The translations under genes and the position numbers were made by a program. Of a DNA stretch of 12,951 nucleotides, positions 1 to 12,951 are shown one piece after another (position 1 is the first letter of the stretch; each line of letters begins with the position of its first letter). The DNA comes from a virus (taxonomy: Duplodnaviria > Heunggongvirae > Uroviricota > Caudoviricetes), in IMG/VR virus record IMGVR_UViG_2671180662_000002; one strand, 5' to 3'. Below the pieces are notes generated by a model. It saw nothing but the letters and a program-made list of their open reading frames with translations, was not told the DNA's origin and did no database searches.

Positions 1-61
1 AATCGGAAAATCGATACTGGAAAAACTCTAACTCGGTGGCCAGTTTTTGTTGACCACTTCA
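1..61 (+). mobile_element. Right terminal end (inverted repeat) of an IS3-family insertion sequence whose body lies upstream of the window
   Basis: Read on the minus strand inward from position 61, the sequence is TGAAGTGGTCAACAAAAACTGGCCAC. It starts with TGA and has GGCCAC at positions 21-26, mirroring the IS end at 12717 (TGAGGTAGCCTGAGTTTAACGGACAC, GGACAC at 21-26). IS3-family elements end 5'-TG...CA-3', and the + strand here ends ...CACTTCA at 61. All three forward frames are closed within bases 1-100, so the downstream terminase has no upstream continuation. Boundary is approximate to a few bp. Confidence 0.5.
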
Positions 62-1102
62 CCTTTCTTTCCGAACCTTGTTGATCACCTTCTGGTTAAG
101 CATCACACGGCTGATGGCGTTGAAGATGGCATTTCAATCTGCTACTTCAAGCCATACTCGCAAGGCCGTGCTCGCTGGCAGGGTGACACAATCCACGGCG
201 TGTGGTTTGACGAAGAGCCACCATACAGCATTTATGGCGAAGGTCTTACCCGTACCAACAAATACGGGCAATTCTCAATTCTGACGTTTACCCCGCTGAT
301 GGGGATGTCTGACGTTGTTACCAAGTTCCTGAAGAACCCCAGCAAGTCGCAGAAAGTGGTCAACATGACCATCTATGACGCTGAGCACTATACCGACGAG
401 CAGAAAGAGCAAATCATCGCATCATATCCCGAGCATGAGAGAGAGGCGCGTGCTCGCGGTATTCCTACGATGGGTAGTGGTCGAATCTTCCAGATACCGG
501 AAGAGACGATTAAGTGTCAGCCGTTCGAGTGTCCTGATCACTTCTACGTAATTGGCGGGATGGATTTCGGATGGGATCACCCACAGGCGCAAGTTCAGCT
601 TTGGTGGGATAAGGAGGCAGACACAATCTACGTTTCACGCGTGTGGAAGGCGAAAGAAAAAACAGCCGTTCAGGCGTGGGGAGCCGTTAAATCATGGGCG
701 CATAAAGTGCCAACCGCATGGCCTCATGATGGAAACCAGCACGAGAAGGGCGGCGGTGAGCAGCTCAAAGGGCAGTATGCAGACGCTGGATTTATGATGT
801 TGCAGGAGCATGCGACATGGCCTGATGGCGGTAACGCTGTTGAGCCAGGCATCACTGAATTGCGCGACATGATGCTCGATGGTCGCTTCAAAGTATTCAA
901 TACCTGTGAGCCATTCTTTGAGGAGTTCCGCCTCTATCACCGTGATGAAAACGGGAAAATCGTCAAGCTTAACGACGACGTGCTATCCGCCGTTCGCTAT
1001 GCATACATGATGCGCCGCTTCGCAAAAATGATGCGCGACATCAAAAAACCAAAAGAGAAAAAGATACCAGCCCCAATCAGGCCCATCGCACGGAGAACTT
1101 AA
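62..1102 (+). pseudogene. 2: Terminase large subunit (TerL), 5'-truncated: Walker B, coupling motif and nuclease domain retained, N-terminal region with Walker A absent
   Basis: Translation contains a Walker B-like GVWFDEE, an ILTFTP coupling-motif-like segment, and an RNaseH-like nuclease signature (YVIGGMDFG, then LNDDVLSAVRYA near the C-terminus). It sits immediately upstream of the portal gene, as in P22. The ORF-track start at 47 is a TTG inside the putative IS repeat, with an in-frame TAA at 29-31. About 347 codons remain, against roughly 470-500 aa for full-length P22-like TerL (recalled). Confidence 0.85.
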
Positions 1103-3268
1103 ATGGCCGACGAAAACAGACTCAATTCCATTCTGTGTAAGTTTGACGCAGACTGGATGGCGAGCGATGAAGCCAGAACCGAGGCGACAAATGACCTGTA
1201 TTTTAGCCGAGTGTCGCAATGGGATGACTGGCTATCAAACTACACTACCCTGCAATATCGCGGACAATTCGATGTTGTTCGCCCGGAGGTCAGGAAACTG
1301 GTCGCAGAGATGCGCCGGAACCCTGTCGACGTTCTCTTCCGACCCAAAGACGGCGCTAATCCTGATGCAGCCGATGTATTGATGGGGATGTATCGTACTG
1401 ATATGCGCCATAACACGGCAAAGATTGCCGTTAACGTTGGCGTTCGTGAGCAGATAGAGTCAGGCGTTGGTGCATGGCGTCTGGTCACGCAGTACGAAGA
1501 CAACGATCCAACAAGCAACAATCAGGTAATCCGACGCCTGCCAATCCATGAAGCCTGCTCACACGTCATATGGGACGCCAACAGCAAGCAGATGGATAAG
1601 AGCGACGCTAAGCACTGCACGGTGATTAACGCCTTGTCGCGCAATGGCTGGAAAGAGTTCGCAGAGGATTACGGTATTGACCCGGATACCCTGCCATCTT
1701 TCCAGAATCCTAACGATACATGGCTATTCCCGTGGGTGTCGAATGATGTCGTCTACGTCGCTGAGTATTACGAGGTAGAAGAGGAGAAGGAGAAGGTCTT
1801 CATCTACCGCGACCCGCTGACAGGTGAGCCGGTCAGCTATTACCAGCAGGATATCAAAGACGTCATCGACGACCTGGCTAATCGTGGATTCATTAAGGTA
1901 GCAGAGCGCAAGGTGAAGCGTCGGCGTGTGTATAAGTCGATCATCACCTGTACGCAGATACTGAAAGACCGCGAGAAGATAGCCGGAGAGCATATTCCAA
2001 TCGTTCCAGTGTATGGCGAATGGTCATTCGCTGGTGACAAGGAGTGCTACGAGGGTGTGGTAAGGCTGACGAAAGACGGTCAACGCCTTCGTAACATGAT
2101 TATGTCGTTCAACGCCGATATTGTTGCTCGGTCACCGAAGAAGAAACCGACCTTCTTCCCTGAGCAAATCGAAGGCTACGAATACATGTACGGCGGAAAT
2201 GATGACTATCCGTACTATCTGCAGAACAGGACTGATGAAAACGGTAACGACCTGCCGATTGGTCCAATCTCCTACATGGAAAACCCTGAAGTGCCGCAAG
2301 CCAACGCTTACATGCTTGAGGCTGCCACCAACGCAGTGAAAGAAGTGGCTAGTCTTGGCGTGGATGCGCAGGCGGCAAATGGTCAGGTCGCTTTTGATAC
2401 CGTCAATCAACTGAACATGCGGGCAGACCTTGAGACATACGTGTTTCAGGATAACCTGGCTACCGCAATGCGACGTGATGGCGAGATTTATGCCTCAATG
2501 GTCAACGATATTTATGACGTTCCTCGTCATGTAACGCTGACACTTGAAGATGGAAGCGAGAAAGACGTTCAACTCTATGCGCAAGTTGTCGATTACCAGT
2601 CCGGCAATGTGGTCACACTCAACGACATTCGCGGTCGATATGAGTGCTATACAGACGTTGGGCCATCCTTCCAGAGTATGAAGGAACAGAACCGCGCAGA
2701 GATTCAGGAGTTGCTCACCAAGGTTCCGCAAGGTACTCCAGAGTTCCAGATGCTGATGCTGCAATACTTCACGCTGCTTGACGGTAAAGGCGTCGAGATG
2801 ATGCGAGAGTACGCGAACAAGCAACTGGTGATGATGGGGCTGAAGAAACCAGAAACACCTGAAGAGATGGAGATGGTGCAGCAGGCACAACAACAGCCGC
2901 AGCAGCCATCAGCAGAGCAAATTCAGGCGCAGGGTATCCTTCTGCAAGGTCAGGCTGAATTGCTCAAGGCAGAGAACCAACAGGCGCAGATTCAGGTTGA
3001 AGCTGCCAAGGTTGAAGCCCAAAACCAACTCAACGCCGCGAAGATTGCAGAAATATTCAACAATATGGACCTCGACAAGCAGGCAGAACTGCGTGAGTAC
3101 CTCAGGCTCGTAGGTCAATTCCAGCAACAGCGCAGCAAAGATGCTCGTGCTAACGCTGAGCTGCTTCTTAAAGATGCAGACCAGACTCATTCACAACGCA
3201 TGGATTTCGCGAATCTTATGCGTCAAGTTCAAATCCCCTCCGGCGGAGTAGCCGAGACACCTCAATAA
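1103..3268 (+). CDS. 1: Portal protein (P22 gp1 family)
   Basis: 721 aa. The N-terminus ([28 protein letters not shown]...[10 protein letters not shown]) and long internal stretches ([43 protein letters not shown]) closely match my recollection of P22 gp1 (about 725 aa). The C-terminal 150 aa is Gln/Ala/Glu-rich and helical, consistent with the P22 portal barrel. GGAG ribosome-binding site 5 nt upstream; start abuts the TerL stop. Confidence 0.95.
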
Positions 3269-3281
3269 GAGAGAGTTAATC

Positions 3282-4193
3282 ATGGACCAAACCACCGACA
3301 TTCAGGCTTCTGAAGAATTAACCCTGCCCGGCAATCATGCAGCGGCATCTGCTGATGGCTTAGTTGTCGATAATGCCAACGACAGCGCAGGTCAGGAAGA
3401 AGGCTTTGAGATTGTCCGGAAAGACGATGAGAAACCAAAACAAGACCCGGCAACTAATGCTGAATTTGCCCGTCGCCGCATCGAACGCAAACGCCAGCGT
3501 GAGCTTGAGCAGCAGATGGAAGCGGTTAAGCGTGGAGAGTTGCCGGAGCACCTGCGGGTGAACCCTGAGTTACCAAAACAACCAGACCCTAACGATTATC
3601 TTTCCGAAGATGCACTGGCTAAGTACGACTATGACCAGAGCCGCGCACTGGCTGCCTTCCAGCAGGCAAACAGTGAATGGCAGATCAAGGCTATGGACGC
3701 ACGAAGCCAGGCTGTCGCCGAGCAGGGTCGCAAAACTCAGGAGTTCACCCAGCAATCAGCGCAATACGTCGAGGCGGCCCGTAAGCACTACGAGGCAGCG
3801 GAAAAGCTCAATATCCCTGACTATCAGGAGAAAGAGGATGCATTCATGCAACTGGTGCCGCCAGCAGTCGGTGCCGACATCATGCGCCTCTTCCCGGAGA
3901 AATCCGCCGCTCTCATGTATCACCTTGGTGCTAATCCTGAGAAAACACGCCAGTTGCTGGCGATGGACGGGCAATCCGCGCTGATTGAACTCACTCGACT
4001 GTCAGAACGTTTAACTCTCAAGCCTCGAGCCAAGCCTGTTTCAGAAGCCCCGTTACCTGATGAACCCATTCAGGGACATGCTGTTGCTGCAAATATCTCT
4101 GCGATTGAAAAGCAGATGGAGGCGGCAGCAAACAAAGGGGATGTAGAGACGTACCGCAAGCTCAAGGCGCAACTGAATAAAGGAATTCGATAA
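3282..4193 (+). CDS. 8: Scaffolding protein (P22 gp8 family)
   Basis: 303 aa, the same length as P22 gp8. Acidic, helical, with a basic C-terminal coat-binding region ([19 protein letters not shown]) and conserved stretches such as [30 protein letters not shown]. Sits between portal and coat. GAGAGAG ribosome-binding site upstream. Confidence 0.93.
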
Positions 4194-5488
4194 TGGCATT
4201 AAATGAAGGTCAACTGGTCACGTATGCTCTGGATGAAATCATCGGAACCGTCCAGAACCTGACGCCAATGGCGTCAAAAGTGACAAAATACCCCCCTCCG
4301 GCAGAATCCATGCAGCGTTCAAGCAACACCGTGTGGATGCCTGTTGAGCAGGAAGCGCCAACCCAGACTGGCTGGGATTTAACTGGCAACGCAACCGGGA
4401 TTCTGGAACTCTCCGTGAAGTGCAACATGGGCGATCCGGATAACGATTTCTTCGAGCTTCGTGCAGATGACCTGCGTGATGAGCGTTCTTACCGTCGCCG
4501 CATCCAGGCATCCGCCAAAAAACTGGCGAATAACATTGAGTCAGCGATTGCCAAACAGGCAACTGAAATGGGCTCGCTTGTTGTTCACGATACCCGCGCA
4601 ATTGGTCCATCGACTGGCCTGCCTGGCTGGGATTTTGTGTCTGATGCAGAGCGACTGATGTTCTCCCGTGAGCTAAACCGCGACATGGGCATCAGTTACT
4701 TCCTGAACCCTGACGATTACCGCAAAGCAGGCCGCAACCTGGTAGATGGTGACATCTTCGGGCGCGTTCCTGAAGAAGCATATCGAAACGGTACTATTCA
4801 GCGTCAGATTGCTGGCTTTGATGAAATTCTTCGCTCACCGAAACTTCCGGCAGTTACCAAGTCAACCGCGACTGGTGTAACTGTTTCTGGTGCGCAGAAG
4901 TTTAAGCCGCAGGCATACACCCTTGATACCGATGGTAACAAAGAGAACGTCGACAACCGTGTTGCAACGGTGACCGTATCCTCCACCACCGGATTTAAGC
5001 GCGGCGACAAAATCAGCTTCATTGGTGTGAAGTTCCTGTCTCAGATGGCGAAGAATGTGCTGACTGATGACGCGACTTTCTCAATCACCCGTGTGATCGA
5101 TGGTACTCACATCGAAATCACGCCGAAGCCGATTGCGCTGGATGACGCGTCACTGACAAAAGAAGAGAAGGCTTACGCTAACGTAAACACCTCTCTTGCT
5201 GATACCACTCCGGTAAACGTTCTGAACGTGGCAACAACCACCGCTAACGTGTTCTGGGCTGATGACTCAATCCGCCTGCTGTCTCAGCCGATCCCGGTAA
5301 CCCATGAACTGTTTGCTGGCATGAAAACGTCTTCCTTCAGCATTCCAGGTATTGGTGTTAACGGCATCTTCGCAACGCAGGGTGATATCAACACTCTGTC
5401 TGGTAAGTGCCGTATTGCTGTGTGGTATTCAGCATGTGCTGTACGACCAGAGGCAATTGGTGTTGGTCTGCCTAACCAGACCGCGTGA
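4193..5488 (+). CDS. 5: Major capsid (coat) protein (P22 gp5 family, HK97-like fold)
   Basis: 431 aa (P22 gp5 is 430 aa as I recall). N-terminus MALNEGQ and C-terminus [13 protein letters not shown] match P22 coat, with many conserved internal blocks ([49 protein letters not shown]). Start overlaps the scaffold stop (TAATG). Confidence 0.95.
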
Positions 5489-5496
5489 TAACCAGA

Positions 5497-5518
5497 GGGA
5501 GCTTCGGCTCCCGTTTTT
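5497..5518 (+). terminator. Rho-independent terminator-like hairpin just downstream of the coat gene
   Basis: GGGAGC (5497-5502), TTCG loop, GCTCCC (5507-5512), then G and TTTTT (5514-5518). A GC-rich 6-bp stem with a tetraloop and a T-run, 9 nt after the coat stop codon. Possibly a partial terminator or attenuator inside the late operon. Confidence 0.5.
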
Positions 5519-5532
5519 ATCTGGAGACAAGC

Positions 5533-5763
5533 ATGACACACATGATCTTTCGTCATGGCGACATGAAGAAGTGGAAAGGCGTTGGCTACGACTTTGAAAT
5601 CGTGAAAGCCGAAGAGCTTCAGGAATATCTGGATGCTGGCTGGTTTTCACATCCTGATGACCTTTTGAAGGATGTTGCAGAGCCAGAGCCAGAAGAAAAA
5701 CAGCGTAAAAAGCCTGGTCGAAAACCTAAGGCGGCAGCAGATGAACCTGACAACGAAGGGTGA
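5533..5763 (+). CDS. Small hypothetical protein (76 aa) between coat and gp4; acidic core with a Lys/Pro-rich basic tail
   Basis: ATG at 5533 with GGAG 6 nt upstream (5523-5526). Translation [76 protein letters not shown]. Its 3' end overlaps the gp4 start by 23 nt in another frame. The ORF-track start at 5485 is GTG and overlaps the coat stop; I prefer 5533. Function unknown. Confidence 0.45.
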
Positions 5764-6241
5764 TTTAGTTCTTGCGGCATTACGTAAGCTCGGTGTTGCA
5801 TCAAATGCCACGTTAACCGATGTCGAACCGCAGTCTATGGAAGACGGCGTCAACGACCTTGAAATGATGATGGCTGAATGGCTTGGCGGTGATGCGTCAC
5901 CTGGTATCAACGTTGGCTACATTTTTGCTGATGCAGATGTTGCTCCGGATCCGGGCGATGAGCACGGTTTATCAAATAACGCTATCAATGCCGTCATTTT
6001 CAACCTTGCCTGCCGAATTGCTCCAGATTATGCGCTGGAAGCGTCTGCAAAACTTATAACCACTGCCAGATACGGGAAAGAGCGACTCGTCAAACTGTCT
6101 GCAATGGACAGGGCAAAAGCAGCTAAATGTAAGTCCGGTTATCCAAACCGTATGCCTGTTGGTAGTGGTAACCAGTTGGCGAAGTGGAATGGTTGGAATT
6201 ACTTCCACCGAAAGGAACCTTGCGATAACGGGAGCGAATAA
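5741..6241 (+). CDS. 4: Tail adaptor / head-completion protein (P22 gp4 family)
   Basis: Start chosen at the internal ATG 5741 ([33 protein letters not shown]...), giving 166 aa. This matches the P22 gp4 N-terminus I recall ([21 protein letters not shown]...) and its length. Conserved [15 protein letters not shown] block. The ORF-track start at 5672 adds 23 non-homologous residues and is rejected. Confidence 0.85.
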
Positions 6242-7659
6242 TGCCTATTCAGCAACTTCCGCTTATGAAAGGTGTCGGCAAAGACTTCCGAAACGCCGAC
6301 TATATCGACTATCTGCCAGTGAATATGCTGGCTACACCCAAAGAAATCCTGAACAGCAGCGGATATCTTCGCTCATTCCCGGGCATTGCCAAACGTTCTG
6401 ACGTGAACGGTGTATCTCGCGGCGTCGAGTACAACATGGCGCAGAATGCTGTTTATCGCGTGTGTGGCGGCAAGCTGTACAAAGGAGAAAGTGAAGTCGG
6501 TGATGTTGCCGGAAGTGGTCGTGTATCAATGGCGCATGGTCGGACATCACAGGCGGTAGGCGTTAATGGTCAACTGGTCGAGTATCGCTATGATGGCACG
6601 GTCAAAACCGTCTCAAACTGGCCTACAGACAGTGGATTCACTCAGTATGAGTTAGGTTCAGTTCGCGACATTACGCGCTTACGTGGGCGTTATGCGTGGT
6701 CAAAAGACGGAACTGATTCATGGTTTATCACTGACCTTGAAGACGAATCTCATCCTGACCGTTACAGCGCACAATATCGTGCCGAGTCTCAGCCTGACGG
6801 CATCATCGGTATCGGGACATGGCGAGACTTCATCGTCTGCTTTGGTTCATCGACTATTGAATATTTCTCCCTGACTGGCGCAACCACCGTTGGTGCCGCT
6901 TTGTATGTTGCACAACCATCGCTGATGGTGCAGAAAGGCATTGCCGGAACTTACTGCAAAACGCCATTCGCTGATTCGTATGCGTTTATCAGCAATCCGG
7001 CAACGGGTGCGCCGTCTGTGTATATCATCGACTCCGGTCAGGTGTCACCAATTGCCAGCGCGAGCATTGAGAAAATCCTCCGCTCCTACACTGCTGATGA
7101 ACTGGCTGATGGTGTGATGGAATCGCTGCGATTTGATGCTCATGAGTTGCTGATTATCCACCTTCCGCGTCACGTCCTCGTGTACGACGCATCTTCAATC
7201 GCCAATGGCCCACAATGGTGTGTGCTGAAAACAGGTCTGTATGACGATGTGTACCGCGCTATCGACTTCGTTTACGAAGGCAATCAGATAACGTGCGGCG
7301 ATAAGCTGGAATCTGTTACCGGGAAACTGCAATTCGATATCAGCAGCCAGTACGACAAGCAACAGGAACACCTGCTGTTTACTCCACTCTTCAAAGCGGA
7401 TAACGCCAGAGTGTTCGACCTTGAGGTTGAATCGTCAACTGGCGTTGCGCAGTACGCCGACCGCCTTTTTCTCTCTGCAACCACTGACTGCATCAATTAC
7501 GGGCGTGAGCAGATGATTGAGCAGAATGAACCGTTCGTTTACGACAAGCGTGTTTTGTGGAAGCGAGTAGGGCGCATCAGGAAAAATGTCGGCTTCAAAT
7601 TGCGCGTTATCACGAAGTCACCTGTCACTCTGTCTGGCGCTCAGATAAGGATTGAGTAA
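6241..7659 (+). CDS. 10: Tail hub / tail accessory protein (P22 gp10 family)
   Basis: 472 aa, the same length as P22 gp10. N-terminus [49 protein letters not shown] is near-identical to my recollection of P22 gp10. Start overlaps the gp4 stop (TAATG). Confidence 0.9.
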
Positions 7660-8507
7660 TGGCTGATTCGAATCTCAATGTGCCGGTAATCATCCAAGCT
7701 ACGCGGCTCGATACATCAGTCCTTCCACGCAATATCTTCTCGCAGTCGTATCTGCTTTACGTTATCGCACAGGGCACTGATGTTGGTAACGTGGCTAACA
7801 AAGCCAACGAGGCCGGACAGGGCGCTTATGATGCACAGGTCAGGAACGATGAGCAGGATGTGATTCTCGCTGACCATGAGCAGCGAATTTCTGCTGCGGA
7901 AGCAACGCTTGTTAATCATGAGGAGCGAATCAGACAGGCAGAATCAACTCTTCAGGACCATGAAACACGAATAGCTCAGAATGAAAGCGATATTTCGTCG
8001 CTTGACACAAGAGTTCAGTCGCTGGAGTCGCAGGTTTCAGACCATGAAACGCGCATCGATGCTCTGGAGTATGCAACCACACGCAAGAAGTCAGAGGTTG
8101 TTTACTCTGGTGTATCTGTAACCATCCCGACAGCGCCGACCAACCTTGTTAGCCTGCTGAAAACGCTCACACCGTCATCCGGCTCGTTGGCACCATTCTT
8201 CGACACCGTTAACAACAAGATGGTTGTGTTCAACGAGAACAAAACCCTGCTCTTCAAGTTGTCGATTGTCGGCACGTGGCCCAGCGGAACCGCCAACAGG
8301 TCAATGCAGCTAACCTTTTCCGGCTCTGTTCCTGACACACTGGTCAGCAGTCGTAATGCGGCGACAACAACCGACAACATCCTGTTAGCTACGTTCTTCA
8401 GCGTGGATAAAGACGGCTTTCTTGCCACAAATGGCAGTACGTTAACCATTCAGTCGAATGGTGCGGCGTTTACTGCCACAACCATCAAGATAATCGCGGA
8501 GCAGTGA
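7659..8507 (+). CDS. 26: Tail needle / plug protein (P22 gp26 family) with a C-terminal knob-type domain unlike the P22 C-terminus (Sf6-type)
   Basis: 282 aa. The N-terminal 60 aa ([43 protein letters not shown]...) match the P22 gp26 N-terminus, followed by a coiled-coil segment with a 14-residue DHExRI repeat. The C-terminal ~130 aa is Ser/Thr-rich and beta-like, not P22-like. Length and architecture fit the Sf6 needle (recalled). Confidence 0.88.
7872..8069 (+). repeat. 42-bp periodic in-frame repeat encoding the trimeric coiled-coil shaft of the tail needle
   Basis: GACCATGAGCAGCGAATT at 7872, AATCATGAGGAGCGAATC at 7914, GACCATGAAACACGAATA at 7956 and GACCATGAAACGCGCATC at 8040 sit at 42-nt multiples. 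They encode D/N-H-E-x-R-I every 14 residues (two heptads). Confidence 0.7.
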
Positions 8508-8962
8508 TGATTACATTCAAACCAACGCGAAACATCGACCTGATAGAAGCAGTCGGAAATCACCCTGACATTATCGCCGGGAGCAACAACGGTGATGGAT
8601 ACGACTACAAACCTGAATGCCGTTACTTTGAGGTGAACGTGCACGGTCAGTTTGGCGGCATTGTTTACTATCAGGAGATTCAGCCGCTGACATTAGATTG
8701 CCACGCCATGTACCTGCCAGAGATTCGCGGCTTCAGCAAGGAAATTGGGCTGGCGTTCTGGCGATACATTCTGACTAACACCACCGTTCAGTGCGTAACA
8801 TCGTTCGCTGCACGCAAATTCCGACACGGTCAGATGTACTGCGCAATGATTGGCCTTAAGCGTGTAGGAACCATCAAGAAATACTTCAAAGGCGTGGATG
8901 ACGTGACTTTTTACAGCGCCACACGCGAAGAACTAATCGACTTCCTGAATCACGGGAGATAG
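8504..8962 (+). CDS. 14: gp14-position protein (virion assembly / ejection-associated), assigned by synteny
   Basis: 152 aa ORF whose start overlaps the needle stop (ATGA). It occupies the slot between gp26 and gp7 that gene 14 holds in P22. I cannot confirm sequence identity from memory, so the assignment rests on position and size only. Confidence 0.65.
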
Positions 8963-8964
8963 CC

Positions 8965-9657
8965 ATGTTATATGCATTTAAGCTGGGCAGAAAACTGCGC
9001 GGCGAGGAACCTTATTGCCCTGAAAAAGGCGGGAAAGGTGGCAGTTCTGATAAAAGCGCAAAGTATGCAGCAGAAGCCCAGAAGTATGCTGCAGACCTGC
9101 AAAATCAGCAGTGGCAGACGATCATGAAAAACCTTGCTCCGTTCACGCCTCTTGCGGAGCAGTATGTTAACCAGCTTCAGAACCTTTCCAGTTTAGAAGG
9201 TCAGGGGCAGGCACTTAATCAGTATTACAACTCTAAGCAGTATAAAGACCTTGCAGGGCAGGCGCGTTACCAGAGTCTTGCTGCTGCGGAGGCGACGGGT
9301 GGACTTGGTTCGACAGCCACAAGCAATCAACTGGCTACGATCGCGCCGACACTCGGTCAGTCTTGGTTATCAAATCAGATGAGCAATTACAACAATCTGG
9401 CAAACGTTGGGCTTGGTGCGCTGCAAGGTCAGGCAAACGCCGGGCAGACGTACGCCAACAACATGAGCAGCATTGCACAGCAAAGCGCAGCTCTTGCCGC
9501 TGCTAATGCCAATAAACCATCAAGTCTTCAGACTGCAATTAGCGGTGGCACGTCTGGTGCGATTGCCGGTGCAGGTCTTGCCAGCCTTTTGGGAACATCA
9601 ACGCCTTGGGGCGCTGGTATTGGTGCTGGTATCGGATTGCTTGGCTCGTTGTTTTAA
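8965..9657 (+). CDS. 7: Ejection (E) protein, P22 gp7 family
   Basis: 230 aa. N-terminus MLYAFKLGRKLRGEEPYCPEKGGKGGSSDKSAKYAAEAQKYAADLQNQQWQTIMKNLAPF closely matches my recollection of P22 gp7. Gln/Asn/Ala-rich body and a C-terminal Gly/Ala-rich hydrophobic segment (GAIAGAGLASLLGTSTPWGAGIGAGIGLLGSLF). GGGAGA ribosome-binding site upstream. Confidence 0.88.
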   Translation: MLYAFKLGRKLRGEEPYCPEKGGKGGSSDKSAKYAAEAQKYAADLQNQQWQTIMKNLAPFTPLAEQYVNQLQNLSSLEGQGQALNQYYNSKQYKDLAGQARYQSLAAAEATGGLGSTATSNQLATIAPTLGQSWLSNQMSNYNNLANVGLGALQGQANAGQTYANNMSSIAQQSAALAAANANKPSSLQTAISGGTSGAIAGAGLASLLGTSTPWGAGIGAGIGLLGSLF

Positions 9658-9666
9658 GGGGGAATC

Positions 9667-10998
9667 ATGGCTACTTGGCAAGGAACAAACGGCGGATTGT
9701 TGGCTGGTATCGGCGGCGTCAACTCAAACGCTCCGAGCGTAAATGACATCGGCAATACGCTTCAGCTTATCAGGCAGAACAATGATATTGAGCGTTCAGG
9801 CGCTAACAATGTTGGGCTGACTGCTTTGCAAGGTCTTTCAGGTATTGCGGGTGTTTTTCAGCAGGAAAAGCAGGCTCAGCGGCAGAAAGAATTTCAGCAG
9901 GCGTACGCTAATGCTTATGCGTCTGGTGATCGCGGTGCTTTGCGTCAGTTGGCTACTCAATATCCAGACCAGATTGAATCCGTTCGTAAAGGCATGGGAT
10001 TCATTGATGAAGAGCAGCGTAATTCTATCGGCACCTTAGCGGCTGGCGCACGCCTTGCGTCATCGTCTCCAGAAGCAATGCAATCATGGCTGCAAAACAA
10101 CGCCGGTGAGTTAGCTCGTGTTGGCGTTAATCCTCATGACGTCGCTCAGATGTACCAACAGAACCCGCGGCAGTTCGGCGAATTTGTCGATCACCTGGGG
10201 ATGAACAGTCTCGGGCCCGAAAAATACTTTGACCTACAGGATAAAATGCAGGGTCGCCAGGTTACCATGCGCGGTCAGGATCTGGATTCGCAAACCGCCG
10301 CTCGGAATCAGGCAATCACAATGCGCGGACAAGATATCCAGGCGAATTTAGGTCAGCAGCGCATTAATCTGGACGCAGAAACAAACCGCATTAACAACGA
10401 AAATAAGCGCCTTGACCGGATGCTATCAGCAGAAACTAACGACCTGAAGCGCCAGGAAATACAGAGCCGCATAGCAGCCAACAACCAGCAGTTGCAGCAG
10501 AAGCAGCAAGCGCTAAATGATGGCTACAAAGACGGCATCAACACCCTCACAACCAGCATGTTCACTCTGAACGATATCGTTAGTTCTCCTTCACTTAAGA
10601 GCATTACAGGCTTACGTGGAGTAATCCCCAACGTTCCAGGCTCACAGGCTGCAGACACTCAGGCACGACTTGATACCTTTAAATCACAAGCATACCTGAC
10701 AGCGGTTCAGGCCATGCGAGGCATGGGCGCACTTTCTGATGCCGAGGGCAAAAAGCTCGACCAGGCTGTTGGTTCGCTGCAGAACTCGCAGAGCGAGGAG
10801 TCCTTTCGTCGCAACGCTGGCGTCATCCTGAACACGCTCAACCAGAAGCGTAATGAGGCGGTTGGTAAGTACGTTCAGCAAAACGGTATCAAGCGAGTGG
10901 AAGCGCCTCAGGCTTCTATAGATTACCTGAAGCAGCACCCCGAGCTGTCAATCGACTTCATTAATCGCTACGGATATCTTCCATCTTTGGGGCAGTAA
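9667..10998 (+). CDS. 20: Ejection (E) protein, gp20-position
   Basis: 443 aa, Gln/Asn-rich and largely helical, with an internal duplicated motif (VTMRGQDLD and ITMRGQDIQ, 18 residues apart). It sits between gp7 and the last ejection gene as gene 20 does in P22 (P22 gp20 is about 471 aa, recalled). AGGGGG ribosome-binding site upstream. Assigned by synteny and composition. Confidence 0.72.
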   Translation: MATWQGTNGGLLAGIGGVNSNAPSVNDIGNTLQLIRQNNDIERSGANNVGLTALQGLSGIAGVFQQEKQAQRQKEFQQAYANAYASGDRGALRQLATQYPDQIESVRKGMGFIDEEQRNSIGTLAAGARLASSSPEAMQSWLQNNAGELARVGVNPHDVAQMYQQNPRQFGEFVDHLGMNSLGPEKYFDLQDKMQGRQVTMRGQDLDSQTAARNQAITMRGQDIQANLGQQRINLDAETNRINNENKRLDRMLSAETNDLKRQEIQSRIAANNQQLQQKQQALNDGYKDGINTLTTSMFTLNDIVSSPSLKSITGLRGVIPNVPGSQAADTQARLDTFKSQAYLTAVQAMRGMGALSDAEGKKLDQAVGSLQNSQSEESFRRNAGVILNTLNQKRNEAVGKYVQQNGIKRVEAPQASIDYLKQHPELSIDFINRYGYLPSLGQ

Positions 10999-12729
10999 AT
11001 GGCTAATTACCGTGATTTGTTAGAGCAGGCTGGCGCACGTTACGGTGTGCCAGAAGGGTTGATGACTGCACTGGGTGCCAAGGAGTCTTCTTACAACCCT
11101 GCCGCAGTAAGCTCCGCCGGGGCTGTAGGATTGACTCAGGTCATGCCTGGGACATGGCGTGATATGGGTTATACCGATGAGCAAATGCAAAACCCCGAAT
11201 ATCAGGCTGACGCTGGCGCGCGCTATCTGGCAAAGATGTACCAGCAGTTTGGTAACTGGCGTGACTCTCTTCAGGCTTATCACGACGGTCCCGGCAACGT
11301 TATGAAGGCAAAGCGTGGTGAATATACGCCAGGACCTGAAGGCCGCGGTTACGTTGATGATCGCTTTGCTCAATGGGCTGGTGACCCGGTGACAGACTCA
11401 ACAGTCGAACAGCGCGCCACCTCTGCAAAGGTACATCCTCAGCAAGACCCTAACAACCCGTTTGCACAACTGGAAGTACAGTCATCCGAACAAGTATCGG
11501 CATCAGGTGTGCAGTCAGACCCAAATAATCCATTTGCTCAGATTGAGCAGCAGGCAGCCAGTCAGCAGCCACCTCAACCCGTAAGTTCTGTCGCACCGAA
11601 ACCTGTTCAGCAACAAACAGTTAATCAGGCCAATAATGCACCAACACGGGAAGAACCATCATTGATGCAACAAGCTGGCGATTGGCTCACTGGTGGTCAA
11701 AGTGCAGGGCAAATTGCAGAACAGGCTGGTCGTGGTCTGGTAAACATACCATTTGACGTATTGCAGGGTGGCGCAAGTCTGATTAATGCAATCAGTCAGG
11801 GGCTTGGGGGGCCAAAAGTATTGGATGATGTTTATCGTCCAGTAGACAGACCGACAGACCCCTACGCGCAAGCTGGAGAGTCAATAGGCGGTTATCTTGT
11901 TCCTGGAGCAGGTGTAGCTGGAAACATGGTCATTGGTTCTCTCGCTGACGCGGCGAATCAACGGGGTGATTTTGCCGAAAATGCCGCTATTAATGCCGGA
12001 CTTAGCATTGCTACGCATGGCCTGATAAATGGCGTTACCCGTGGTGTTCGTGGTGCATCAAATATAATTAGTGGCAATAAAACATCTGCACAGAGAGCGA
12101 CCACTGCGCCAACAGAAACATCACCATTCTCCGGTGATGCCGCTGCAGCAACAAATCCTGCGGTTCATGCCGCAGAGGCAAGAGTAGCACAAGGTGTACC
12201 AATGACGCCTGCGACGAAGAACCCAGAGGAAGTCGTTCGCACAGTAGCAGCACAAAAAAGGCCAAATCTCGCTTCATCGCTTGATGAACTAGATATCAAT
12301 CCTCAGGCTGAAGTTCTGGAGTCTGCTGAAAGGCTTAATGTTGATTCATTACTCCCTTCACACTTTTCCGGGAACGAGCAATACAAGGCAGTTGAGCAAG
12401 CAATCAAGTCCCGTGCGGGTTCTGCTCTACAGGTGCAGGAAAATGAAGCAATCAGGCAGCTAGCACAGGGCGCGGGTGAGATAATTGATCGCGTTTCCGG
12501 TGCAAAAGATGCTCTTGGTATGAGCGACAAGTTTATTGATACGGTCAATGGAAGAATGTCTGCGCTGATGAAACGAAGCGACCAGCTTTATCGCAATGTT
12601 GAAAAGGCGATGCCTGCAGGTGCAAAAATTGATGCGCCATCAACAAGGTCAATGCTCAAACAGGTGGCAGAAGATCTTGGCGGGATGAAAAACCTTGACC
12701 CTATTGAAAAGAGAGTTGAGGTAGCCTGA
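10999..12729 (+). CDS. 16: Ejection (E) protein at the gp16 position, with an N-terminal lytic transglycosylase (SLT) domain; the last codons and stop come from the adjacent IS inverted repeat, so it is probably 3'-truncated
   Basis: 576 aa. Residues about 8-115 carry family-1 lytic transglycosylase motifs: AKESSYNP (candidate catalytic Glu29), [10 protein letters not shown], and [10 protein letters not shown] tandem motif DPNNPFAQ(L/I)E follows. The C-terminal half is Ala/Gly-rich. The stop TGA at 12727-12729 lies inside the putative IS left repeat, which starts about 12717. Start abuts the gp20 stop. Confidence 0.78.
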
Positions 12730-12951
12730 GTTTAACGGACACTCCTTCCTGAAATAGAATGGCATCAGAAGGAGCTAATAATGAGCAGAAAAACCCAACG
12801 TTACTCTAAAGAGTTCAAAGCCGAAGCTGTCAGAACGGTTCTTGAAAATCAACTTTCGATCAGTGAAGGCGCTTCCCGATTATCCCTTCCTGAAGGCACT
12901 TTAGGACAATGGGTTACCGCCGCCAGAAAAGGGCTCGGTACTCCTGGTTCC
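12717..12951 (+). mobile_element. Left end of an IS3-family insertion sequence (IS600-like), continuing beyond the window end
   Basis: Terminal repeat TGAGGTAGCCTGAGTTTAACGGACAC starts with TG and has GGACAC at positions 21-26, as in the IS3 left repeat I recall (TGATCTTACCCAGCAATAGTGGACAC). It is followed by an AGGAG ribosome-binding site and an OrfA-type reading frame. Exact first base is uncertain by a few nt. Confidence 0.8.
12781..12951 (+). CDS. IS3-family transposase OrfA (helix-turn-helix DNA-binding N-terminal part), 3'-partial at window end
   Basis: ATG at 12781 with AGGAG 7 nt upstream. Translation MSRKTQRYSKEFKAEAVRTVLENQLSISEGASRLSLPEGTLGQWVTAARKGLGTPGS has the short basic N-terminus and helix-turn-helix typical of IS3-family OrfA. 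It resembles what I recall for IS600 of Shigella. The ORF runs off the end of the window. Confidence 0.85.
   Translation, partial: MSRKTQRYSKEFKAEAVRTVLENQLSISEGASRLSLPEGTLGQWVTAARKGLGTPGS

Follow-up and report, generated by a model that had tools for sequence, protein, structure and literature searches.

The open reading frame between the tail hub gene and the gp14-like gene of the analysed window (Table 1), a stretch of 12,951 nucleotides of viral DNA (IMGVR_UViG_2671180662_000002), almost certainly encodes an intact tail needle of the Sf6 type, consisting of an N-terminal plug, a coiled-coil shaft and a C-terminal knob, for which we propose domain functions, a route of length change, exchange of the shaft and knob as a module, and a setting in a prophage remnant. 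The reading frame starts with ATG and comprises 282 codons plus a stop, giving a protein of 282 amino acids, and the gene is 98.3% identical at the DNA level to Sf6 gene 9 (AF547987, 8254-9100). At least 1000 contigs carry the exact protein, which is named 'tail needle knob protein [Shigella]' in the database. Both neighbouring genes overlap the needle gene by a single base, which is shared by the TAA of the tail hub gene and the ATG of the needle on one side, and by the TGA of the needle and the ATG of the gp14-like gene on the other. Based on the Pfam families of the neighbours and the Sf6 annotation, the needle gene is situated between the gp10-like hub gene, which in identical form matches PF11134 (Phage_stabilise) in a relative locus (L005), and the gp14/gp7/gp20/gp16 ejection-protein genes. 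The gene order over the window (terminase', portal, scaffold, coat, gp4, gp10, needle, gp14, gp7, gp20, gp16') is that of P22 and Sf6, and we met no evidence that contradicts the family assignment. For Sf6, HS1 and P22 there are existing descriptions of the protein, its fold, the two tip types and the variation in shaft length, and the interpretation given in the initial annotation adds nothing to what has been published on Sf6 gp9. The discovery value is small, the exact sequence being already correctly named in public databases. Two reading frames on the minus strand are located within the needle gene (7716..7919 and 8102..8449); these were set aside because a characterised gene of 98% identity fully accounts for the plus strand.

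Table 1. Features of the needle gene and its direct neighbours, with positions in the window
Feature	Position	Strand	Evidence
Tail hub gene (homologue of P22 gp10, Sf6 gp8)	6241..7659	+	PF11134, Sf6 annotation
Tail needle gene (homologue of Sf6 gene 9, P22 gene 26)	7659..8507	+	ORF, translation, Sf6 identity
Putative N-terminal hub-binding/plugging domain, residues 1-73	7659..7877	+	P22 gp26 identity; Sf6 literature
Direct repeat pair in the N-terminal domain, 48 nt spacing	7766..7833	+	Repeat search; relatives' alignment
Putative trimeric coiled-coil shaft, five 42-nt units from 7872, 7914, 7956, 7998 and 8040	7872..8081	+	Motifs, autocorrelation, model, heptads
CATGAG microhomology pair, 7875-7880 and 7917-7922, flanking the 42-nt unit duplicated in L009	7875..7922	+	
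Putative shaft and knob mosaic module	7880..8504	+	blastn vs APC_JM3.2; Sf6 alignment
GACCATGAAAC 11-nt microhomology pair, 7956-7966 and 8040-8050, 84 nt apart	7956..8050	+	
Predicted C-terminal knob, TNF-like jellyroll trimer, residues 142-282	8082..8504	+	PF16532; 3RWN/4K6B; Foldseek; ligand residues
gp14-like gene (DUF2824)	8507..8962	+	PF11039 E=1e-52; Sf6 gene 10 annotation

The initial annotation described the C-terminus as rich in Ser, Thr and Asn, beta-like, and of the Sf6 knob type instead of the P22 type, and this was confirmed by several approaches. Ser, Thr and Asn together account for 35% of residues 150-282, and the family profile PF16532 ('Sf6-type phage tail needle knob', Phage_tail_NK) was matched with E=2e-116 and 386.2 bits (cut-off 27), whereby the full profile (1-175) aligns to needle residues 108-282. 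Residues 130-282 are approximately 97% identical to the knob crystal structures 3RWN (Sf6 gp9) and 4K6B (HS1) with E ~1e-88, and 4 of the 153 positions differ from 3RWN, namely S176 for T, L198 for F, A234 for S and A270 for S. The Sf6 knob is reportedly also the subject of a study by Bhardwaj from 2011. Prediction of the structure and its comparison with the Sf6 knob, which had been suggested as a check, gave a beta-rich domain (residues 144-281 of the AlphaFold model), and in a Foldseek search with this model 4K6B and 3RWN were the best matches (E ~1e-20, TM 0.80 normalised to target), followed by weak matches to jellyroll capsid and TNF-family folds. The confidence of the model is low in residues 227-258 (pLDDT <50), which probably reflects the prediction of an obligate trimer as a monomer from a shallow alignment.

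It has been described that knobs of this type contact L-glutamate with a set of residues and phosphate with an S-R-N triad (PMC3741392). All nine of these residues, E146, K200, S248, D250, L255 and K277 for L-glutamate and S231-R232-N233 for phosphate (Sf6 numbering), are present in the needle, consistent with a distal tip, residues ~142-282, that forms a TNF-like jellyroll knob and would bind three L-glutamates and one phosphate. The TNF-like knob and the existence of two alternative needle tip types have been published before, and chimeras have shown that the knob does not determine host specificity (PMC3741392). The knob of the present needle would affect the kinetics of DNA delivery and not host specificity.

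The possibility that we are dealing with a P22/HK620-type needle with a helical, lazo-like tip, in which the Ser/Thr-rich C-terminus is merely a diverged version of that tip, would agree with the 82% identity between residues 1-73 and P22 gp26, and with a surrounding backbone that is nearest to phages with a knobless needle of 233 amino acids. However, this reading has virtually no chance of being correct, since the alignment to gp26 stops at residue ~144, the C-terminus has the abovementioned identity to the Sf6 and HS1 knob crystals, and the tip region gives no DNA alignment to the needle of APC_JM3.2, with the 44% overall protein identity to the latter being all N-terminal. When the C-terminus was compared with the P22 gp26 structures, no alignment was obtained past residue ~144-149. 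The PF16532 match, the identity to 3RWN and 4K6B and the Foldseek result together rule out a P22-type helical tip, leaving the Sf6-type knob as the assigned tip.

At the other end of the protein, the claim that the first ~60 residues are of the P22 type was borne out. The 82% identity to gp26 in residues 1-73 is followed by 31% identity in residues 74-137, and the gp26 structures 2POH and 3C9I align without gaps over needle residues 1-137/144 (E ~4e-43), while 8EAP chain B, comprising gp26 residues 1-62, matches the needle N-terminus with E=1.7e-27. Since the ungapped alignment extends up to residue 137, the P22 match is longer than originally claimed, and the shaft itself is homologous to the P22 helical core. 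The N-terminal domain has also been kept in the P22/HK620-type needle of APC_JM3.2, with DNA homology up to position 7879. In Sf6, the N-terminal helical hairpin of the needle plugs the channel of the hexameric tail hub (PMC9728967), and in the same way needle residues 1-73 would enter the hexameric hub (gp10/gp8) and block the exit channel for DNA. The plug, shaft and knob functions have been established for Sf6, HS1 and P22, and are assigned here on the basis of 97-98% identity.

The intervening part, residues 72-141, is a heptad coiled coil. The (D/N)HExRI motif occurs at residues 72, 86, 100 and 128, a degenerate version, SLDTRV, being found at residue 114, and these positions set the period of the shaft at exactly 14 amino acids (42 nt). 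When residues 58-141 were arranged in a table of 12 rows of seven, I, L or V was found at position 6 of each shaft heptad, and the AlphaFold model contains a single continuous helix from residue 42 to 141 with pLDDT values of 81-98. The needle is probably a homotrimer, considering its identity to trimeric crystal structures and the heptad pattern, in which case residues ~42-141 would form a three-stranded coiled-coil shaft that reaches past the tailspikes, and the 14-residue period would correspond to two heptads with a recurring (D/N)HExRI motif. The shafts in the needle family comprise 11-16 heptads (PMC3741392).

The initial annotation had described the shaft as being built from a 42-bp DNA repeat encoding DHExRI every 14 residues, of which the periodicity stood and the clean repeat did not. 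Tandem Repeats Finder, run over positions 7600-8560 with a minimum score of 30, detected no array, so that the idea of a clean 42-bp tandem repeat was abandoned and the periodicity was measured by autocorrelation. The in-register DNA identity of the shaft at a lag of 42 nt was significant, 0.50 versus 0.276 ± 0.035 in codon shuffles (none of 5000 as high), a control in which an old duplication and constraint on the motif are not separable for the units of the window itself, and the protein identity at lag 14 was 0.43 (again none of 5000 shuffles as high). The 42-nt units have diverged to 38-62% pairwise DNA identity, with a longest exact in-register run of 11 nt, and the sole yield of a repeat search of the shaft region was a 23-nt core at 65-78%. 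The shaft repeat is a periodic coding pattern rather than a clean DNA tandem array.

A comparison of the repeat region across relatives, also suggested at the outset, did reveal copy-number variants in the form of perfect 42-bp and 84-bp duplications. A Shigella flexneri allele (L009), encoding a protein of 296 amino acids (P0004), carries a perfect 42-bp tandem duplication, visible as 48 nt that match exactly within the allele at an offset of 42, and without this 42-nt insertion it differs from positions 6159-10007 of the window by 1 mismatch in 3849 bp. The S. flexneri isolates with the 296-amino acid allele are represented by assembly GCA_013855085.1 and the sources of EGC2902306.1 and EGE3827959.1. 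One further contig, likewise from S. flexneri, encodes a second protein of 296 amino acids (P0005). Sites equivalent to the GACCATGAAAC pair flank an 84-nt unit that is duplicated in other relatives, with two copies in P0002 and three in P0001, and the loci L010-L013 contain exact self-matches of 95 nt and 179 nt at offset 84. P0002, with its perfect 84-nt duplication, was found in three independent samples. At the direct repeat pair in the N-terminal domain, P0006 from an E. coli relative has a perfect 48-nt (16-amino acid) duplication, and L015 matches itself exactly over 54 nt at an offset of 48. Needle alleles of +28, +56 and -14 residues were found at other loci, and among the best 120 of 2509 homologues the shaft length differs by a multiple of 7 in 112 of the 115 cluster representatives, forming two series whose step is 14. 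Whether a given change in length was a duplication or a deletion was judged from the majority state.

These perfect duplications indicate that duplication of the units is at work in this gene family. They bear on the idea that the 14-residue period arose by structural convergence on heptads, with no history of duplication and with the DNA period as a by-product of the motif. The codons that specify the same residues in different units often differ (CGA/CGC for Arg; ATT/ATC/ATA for Ile), and P22 gp26 has only the first two DHExRI motifs in common with the needle, as convergence would have it. However, precisely these units are perfectly duplicated in relatives, evidently in recent events, and the lag-42 DNA identity clearly exceeds that of the shuffles (0.50 versus 0.28), so that we judge convergence to be distinctly unlikely. 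The length changes look like rare duplications and deletions by way of 6-11 nt microhomology, or unequal exchange. The identical 6-11 nt strings at the motifs would permit the occasional in-frame gain or loss of 42-nt or 84-nt units, by which the length of the needle in this family would shift in quanta of 14 residues with conservation of the heptad register. Fourteen residues amount to about 2 nm of coiled coil.

The initial annotation also regarded the repeats as a substrate for slippage. The predicted 14-residue steps were observed, including the 42-bp duplication at this very locus, and the events do not resemble high-frequency slippage on near-identical repeats. In its strongest form, the slippage model would make the 42-bp region a hypermutable contingency tract, in which slipped-strand mispairing switches needle length at a high rate, as a host-range or adsorption device resembling phase variation. 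In-frame variants in 14-residue steps do exist, one of them at the same locus, but the divergence of the 42-nt units and the absence of an array in the Tandem Repeats Finder analysis argue against a hypermutable tract. In addition, the +14 allele is found in three assemblies versus at least 1000 contigs with the exact 282-amino acid protein, and the common length classes of 282, 303 and 317 amino acids belong to different sequence lineages with 80-87% identity to the query and are not interconverting alleles. The chimeras mentioned above, showing that host specificity is not set by the knob (PMC3741392), do not fit such a device either. We therefore consider a contingency tract very improbable, and a slipped-strand contingency locus was rejected, as high-identity head-to-tail repeats with frequent copy change were not found.

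Rare, microhomology-associated events thus remain our reading of the length variants. A broader proposal, which we put forward tentatively and regard as doubtful, is that shaft length is a naturally polymorphic, quantised trait and that selection in viable P22-like phages might sort the lengths. The mutational part of this proposal is borne out, at the sequence level, by the perfect 42-bp and 84-bp duplications, and the adaptive part is speculative, as are the candidate selective pressures: the reach of the tailspikes, the depth of the O-antigen or capsule, and the timing of contact with the outer membrane. The needle family and the length of its coiled coil are reportedly the subject of an earlier study by Bhardwaj (2009). 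A limited literature search gave no account of tail needles with tandem duplications, an absence that is weak evidence. The natural alleles provide direct evidence for a change in coiled-coil length without loss of the heptad register, and may be of help in gp26-based fibre engineering or in studies of DNA delivery kinetics.

The shaft and knob also stand out in the comparison with the closest phage backbone. As determined by blastn, APC_JM3.2 covers positions 59-7879 and 8505-12716 of the window with ~96-97% DNA identity, and within the phage part of the window DNA homology to this phage is missing from 7880-8504 alone. This places the mosaic junctions at 7879/7880 and 8504/8505, with needle codons ~74-282 being swapped. 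In the alignment with Sf6, identity is 100% in each 200-nt window from 7736 to 8135. The shaft and knob behave like an exchangeable module, in this case an Sf6-like module in an APC_JM3.2/IME10-like backbone, and the window illustrates the clean exchange of such a module among P22-like backbones.

The window represents an IS-bounded, P22-like prophage remnant in a Shigella chromosome. Its genes for the large terminase and gp16 are truncated and a tailspike is absent, so this copy probably builds no virions. The needle gene may be silent and, the prophage being defective, its role in plugging virions may never be exercised. Any relevance of this copy would be limited to recombination with an incoming Sf6-like phage or to complementation of such a phage, and this IS-eroded remnant, which is common in Shigella, could serve as a recombination reservoir for these phages. 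It is an ordinary needle gene, but the same locus in another Shigella isolate has one extra 14-residue shaft repeat.

The closest known systems include Sf6. Sf6 gp9 has the same length (282 amino acids), the same three-part architecture and 99% protein identity, and its gene has the same flanking genes, gp8/gp10-like upstream and gp10/gp14-like downstream. However, outside positions 6236-10203 the backbone is unlike that of Sf6, with portal, scaffold and coat genes that have no DNA match to it, and Sf6 is a viable phage whereas the copy described here resides in an IS-truncated prophage remnant. The needle of the E. coli prophage HS1 (317 amino acids, 4K6B) has a knob that is ~97% identical and a near-identical N-terminal domain, but HS1-type needles have 16 heptads compared to 11 in the present needle (PMC3741392), and in the alignment this 317-residue class has 35 additional shaft residues and a diverged shaft sequence. 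P22 gp26 occupies the same position in the gene order and has the same plug and needle role (PMC3741392); it shares the homologous hub-plugging N-terminus and a coiled-coil core of the same length and heptad register, yet contains only two DHExRI motifs, and its C-terminal domains (residues ~141-233) are replaced here by an unrelated TNF-like knob. The closest overall backbone is that of the P22-like Lederbergvirus phages APC_JM3.2, IME10 and Dewey. The APC_JM3.2 needle, in contrast, comprises 233 amino acids, lacks the knob and is non-homologous from codon ~74 to the end, and in IME10 and Dewey the megablast match to the needle gene of the window is confined to the first ~209 nt, or is absent.

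The needle gene product is an Sf6-type tail needle. The Pfam profile PF16532 ('Sf6-type phage tail needle knob') matched in full on residues 108-282 (E=2e-116), and over residues 130-282 only 4 of 153 positions differed from the crystallised Sf6 gp9 knob (3RWN), the HS1 knob (4K6B) being just as close. At the DNA level, the gene was 98.3% identical to Sf6 gene 9. An AlphaFold model built without templates showed a single long helix at 42-141 (pLDDT 81-98) with a compact beta domain behind it at 144-281, and a structural search with this model returned 4K6B and 3RWN as best matches (E about 1e-20, target-normalised TM 0.80), followed only by weak jellyroll and TNF-family matches. This bears out the initial annotation, which had proposed a beta-like, Ser/Thr/Asn-rich C-terminus of Sf6 knob type; these three residues make up 35% of positions 150-282. 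The P22-type N-terminus that it had also proposed was confirmed, with 82% ungapped identity to P22 gp26 over residues 1-73, but the estimate of ~60 residues was too short, since the likeness runs on into the shaft, where the register is kept up to residue 137 and identity drops to 31%. The exact 282-aa sequence is present on at least 1000 public contigs, titled 'MULTISPECIES: tail needle knob protein [Shigella]', and a match to the gene was found in 914 of 5426 complete E. coli genomes (covering at least 80% of the gene in 493); the matches listed carry the same annotation.

In the needle trimer, the N-terminal helical hairpins have been shown to plug the tail hub channel in a quasi-sixfold arrangement (PMC9728967), and the knob, a trimer of TNF-like fold, binds three L-glutamates (PMC3741392). 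Based on its identity to needles studied by others, the protein encoded here would likewise consist of an N-terminal plug, a shaft reaching past the tailspikes, and a knob. All six residues that contact L-glutamate are kept, as is the S-R-N phosphate triad (residue list from PMC3741392). Moving an Sf6-type knob onto P22 left host specificity unchanged, and tip alterations slowed K+ release, which argues that the tip affects how fast DNA is delivered (PMC3741392).

Features of the window and of the needle protein
Feature	Position	Strand	Details
Large terminase ORF	47-1102		5'-truncated: 351 codons versus 499 in APC_JM3.2
Needle ORF	7659..8507	+	ATG start, 282 codons
gp16-like ejection protein ORF	10999-12729		N-terminal SLT lytic transglycosylase domain, residues 7-110, E=9e-25
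IS3-family orfA (HTH_Tnp_1)	starts 12781		
Shaft motifs	needle residues 72, 86, 100, 114, 128		DHEQRI, NHEERI, DHETRI, SLDTRV (degenerate), DHETRI

The genes are arranged as in the P22/Sf6 morphogenetic operon, in the order large terminase, portal, scaffold, coat, a small ORF, gp4, gp10, needle, gp14, gp7, gp20 and gp16. The needle ORF overlaps both neighbours by one base: its ATG with the TAA of the 472-codon gene upstream, and its TGA with the ATG of the 151-codon gene downstream. Such close coupling is usual in phage late operons. No Pfam match is on record for the small ORF (5485-5763), which is located between the coat and gp4 genes and called as 76 aa in the locus L005; at the same position Sf6 carries its gene 6, whose annotation notes similarity to HK620 HKbT. 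Phage homology is limited to 59..12716, with flanks 1-58 and 12717-12951 falling outside, and IS elements form the boundaries of this phage segment. The large terminase lacks about 150 N-terminal codons, its Pfam Terminase_6N match beginning at profile position 68, and there is no small terminase gene upstream of it in the window. The gp16-like ORF ends 13 nt past the end of the APC_JM3.2 homology, around codon 573 in a homologue of 911 codons, and appears to be cut there by an IS junction. Two chromosome records (LR213455.1 and CP012735.1) contain near-identical loci (99.99%) with transposase genes on the flanks, beyond which psiF, phoA and iraP of the host follow in LR213455.1, and in one strain (CP007037.1) everything upstream of the needle gene has been lost to IS elements. 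The window is thus an IS-eroded prophage remnant without tailspike or small terminase, in which the needle gene is intact yet probably idle. Small P22-like remnants, Sf6-type needle gene included, have already been noted in many E. coli genomes (Leavitt et al., PMC3741392). In sister strains (flanks of loci L006-L008), a second IS lies inside orfA, 21 nt after its ATG, and the alignment breaks past window position 12801.

The best overall backbones were the P22-like phages APC_JM3.2, Dewey and IME10 (about 97% identity). The APC_JM3.2 needle is 233 aa long and lacks the knob. In blastn, 59-7879 and 8505-12716 aligned with this phage and 7880-8504 did not, a block that runs from around needle codon 74 (the first DHEQRI) exactly to the stop codon. 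Similarity to Sf6 DNA was confined to 6236-10203, and in 200-nt windows identity was 100% across 7736-8135 and 88-98% in the flanks. Because of the APC_JM3.2 gap and this local Sf6 identity, shaft plus knob behave as a cassette that can be exchanged, with the join in the conserved N-terminal part; functional P22/Sf6 chimeras were made with essentially the same join, at codon 69 (Leavitt et al., PMC3741392). A NUMOD4/HNH_3 homing-endonuclease ORF is located between the gp10-like and needle genes in a related locus (L014, 963-1508) and in E. coli matches H52, H87 and H90, and is absent from the window. Such an endonuclease beside the needle gene could promote exchange of the module.

The shaft motifs are spaced by strictly 14 residues (42 nt) over residues 72-141. 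In-register nucleotide identity at lag 42 was 0.50, compared to 0.276 +/- 0.035 in codon shuffles, and protein identity at lag 14 was 0.43, values reached by 0 of 5000 shuffles in either case, so that the suggested 42-bp period with DHExRI every 14 residues is far beyond chance. Their DNA marks the units as copies that are either old or under constraint: pairwise identities are 38-62%, the longest exact in-register match is 11 nt, Tandem Repeats Finder reported no array, and a second repeat search recovered only a 23-nt core (65-78% identity). One core position is I/L/V in every heptad. From the heptad table we infer that the other is His or Leu in alternate heptads, which would explain why the natural repeat unit is two heptads.

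The best 120 homologue clusters had lengths of 267/268, 282 (72 clusters), 296, 303 (27 clusters), 310, 317, 324, 331, 338 and 345 aa, with a few single odd lengths (285, 288, 298, 309, 316 and 416). Shaft length, taken as the distance from the conserved NDEQD to YATTRKK, could be measured in 115 representatives, and 112 of these were a multiple of 7 away from the window's needle. Two arithmetic series with step 14 emerged (61, 75, 89, 103, 131 and 96, 110, 124, 138). Three single sequences are off the heptad register, P0003 (309 aa, +27), P0056 (316 aa, +34) and P0104 (285 aa, +3); a defective allele, a sequencing error or a stutter in the coiled coil may account for each. Alignment of the repeat region across relatives revealed gains of 42-nt and 84-nt units and one 42-nt loss. 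An S. flexneri needle found in three assemblies (P0004) carries an exact duplicate of a 42-nt unit with CATGAG microhomology on both sides; in P0002, from three independent samples of which one is a metagenome, an 84-nt unit flanked by GACCATGAAAC is duplicated, and P0001 has this unit in three copies, while P0053 misses one 42-nt unit. These perfect tandem duplications and the step-14 series support the prediction that shaft length changes in 14-residue steps. A sequencing read is longer than any of these duplications, and one of them recurs in independent samples, which argues that they are real. In-register duplications and deletions would draw their microhomology from the conserved motif codons. 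In an E. coli needle (P0006; L015, 1501-2397), a 48-nt (16-residue) stretch of the N-terminal domain is perfectly duplicated, at the site of a direct repeat pair of the window (7766-7833, 48-nt spacing).

The S. flexneri locus L009 differed from the window over 3849 bp by a 42-bp insertion and a single mismatch, with no substitution in the needle gene itself, and because of this near-identity both a 282-aa and a 296-aa allele of the same prophage remnant seem to be present in the population. One further S. flexneri contig encodes another 296-aa protein (P0005). With the +14 allele in three assemblies versus at least 1000 contigs with the 282-aa protein, the length-change process is rare, and in a dead prophage it is presumably neutral. 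The common 303-aa and 317-aa classes, 80-87% identical to the window's needle, are distinct sequence lineages rather than fresh alleles. The length variants reveal a mutational mechanism and do not demonstrate an adaptive switch.

A limited literature search found no description of microhomology-mediated, 14-residue-quantised length polymorphism in needles, and its explicit demonstration, also at this locus, is what may be novel here. The inferences of the initial annotation were all correct and had already been published for Sf6 gp9, HS1 and P22 gp26, as had both tip types and shafts of 11-16 heptads, and the public database annotation of the needle sequence was already correct.
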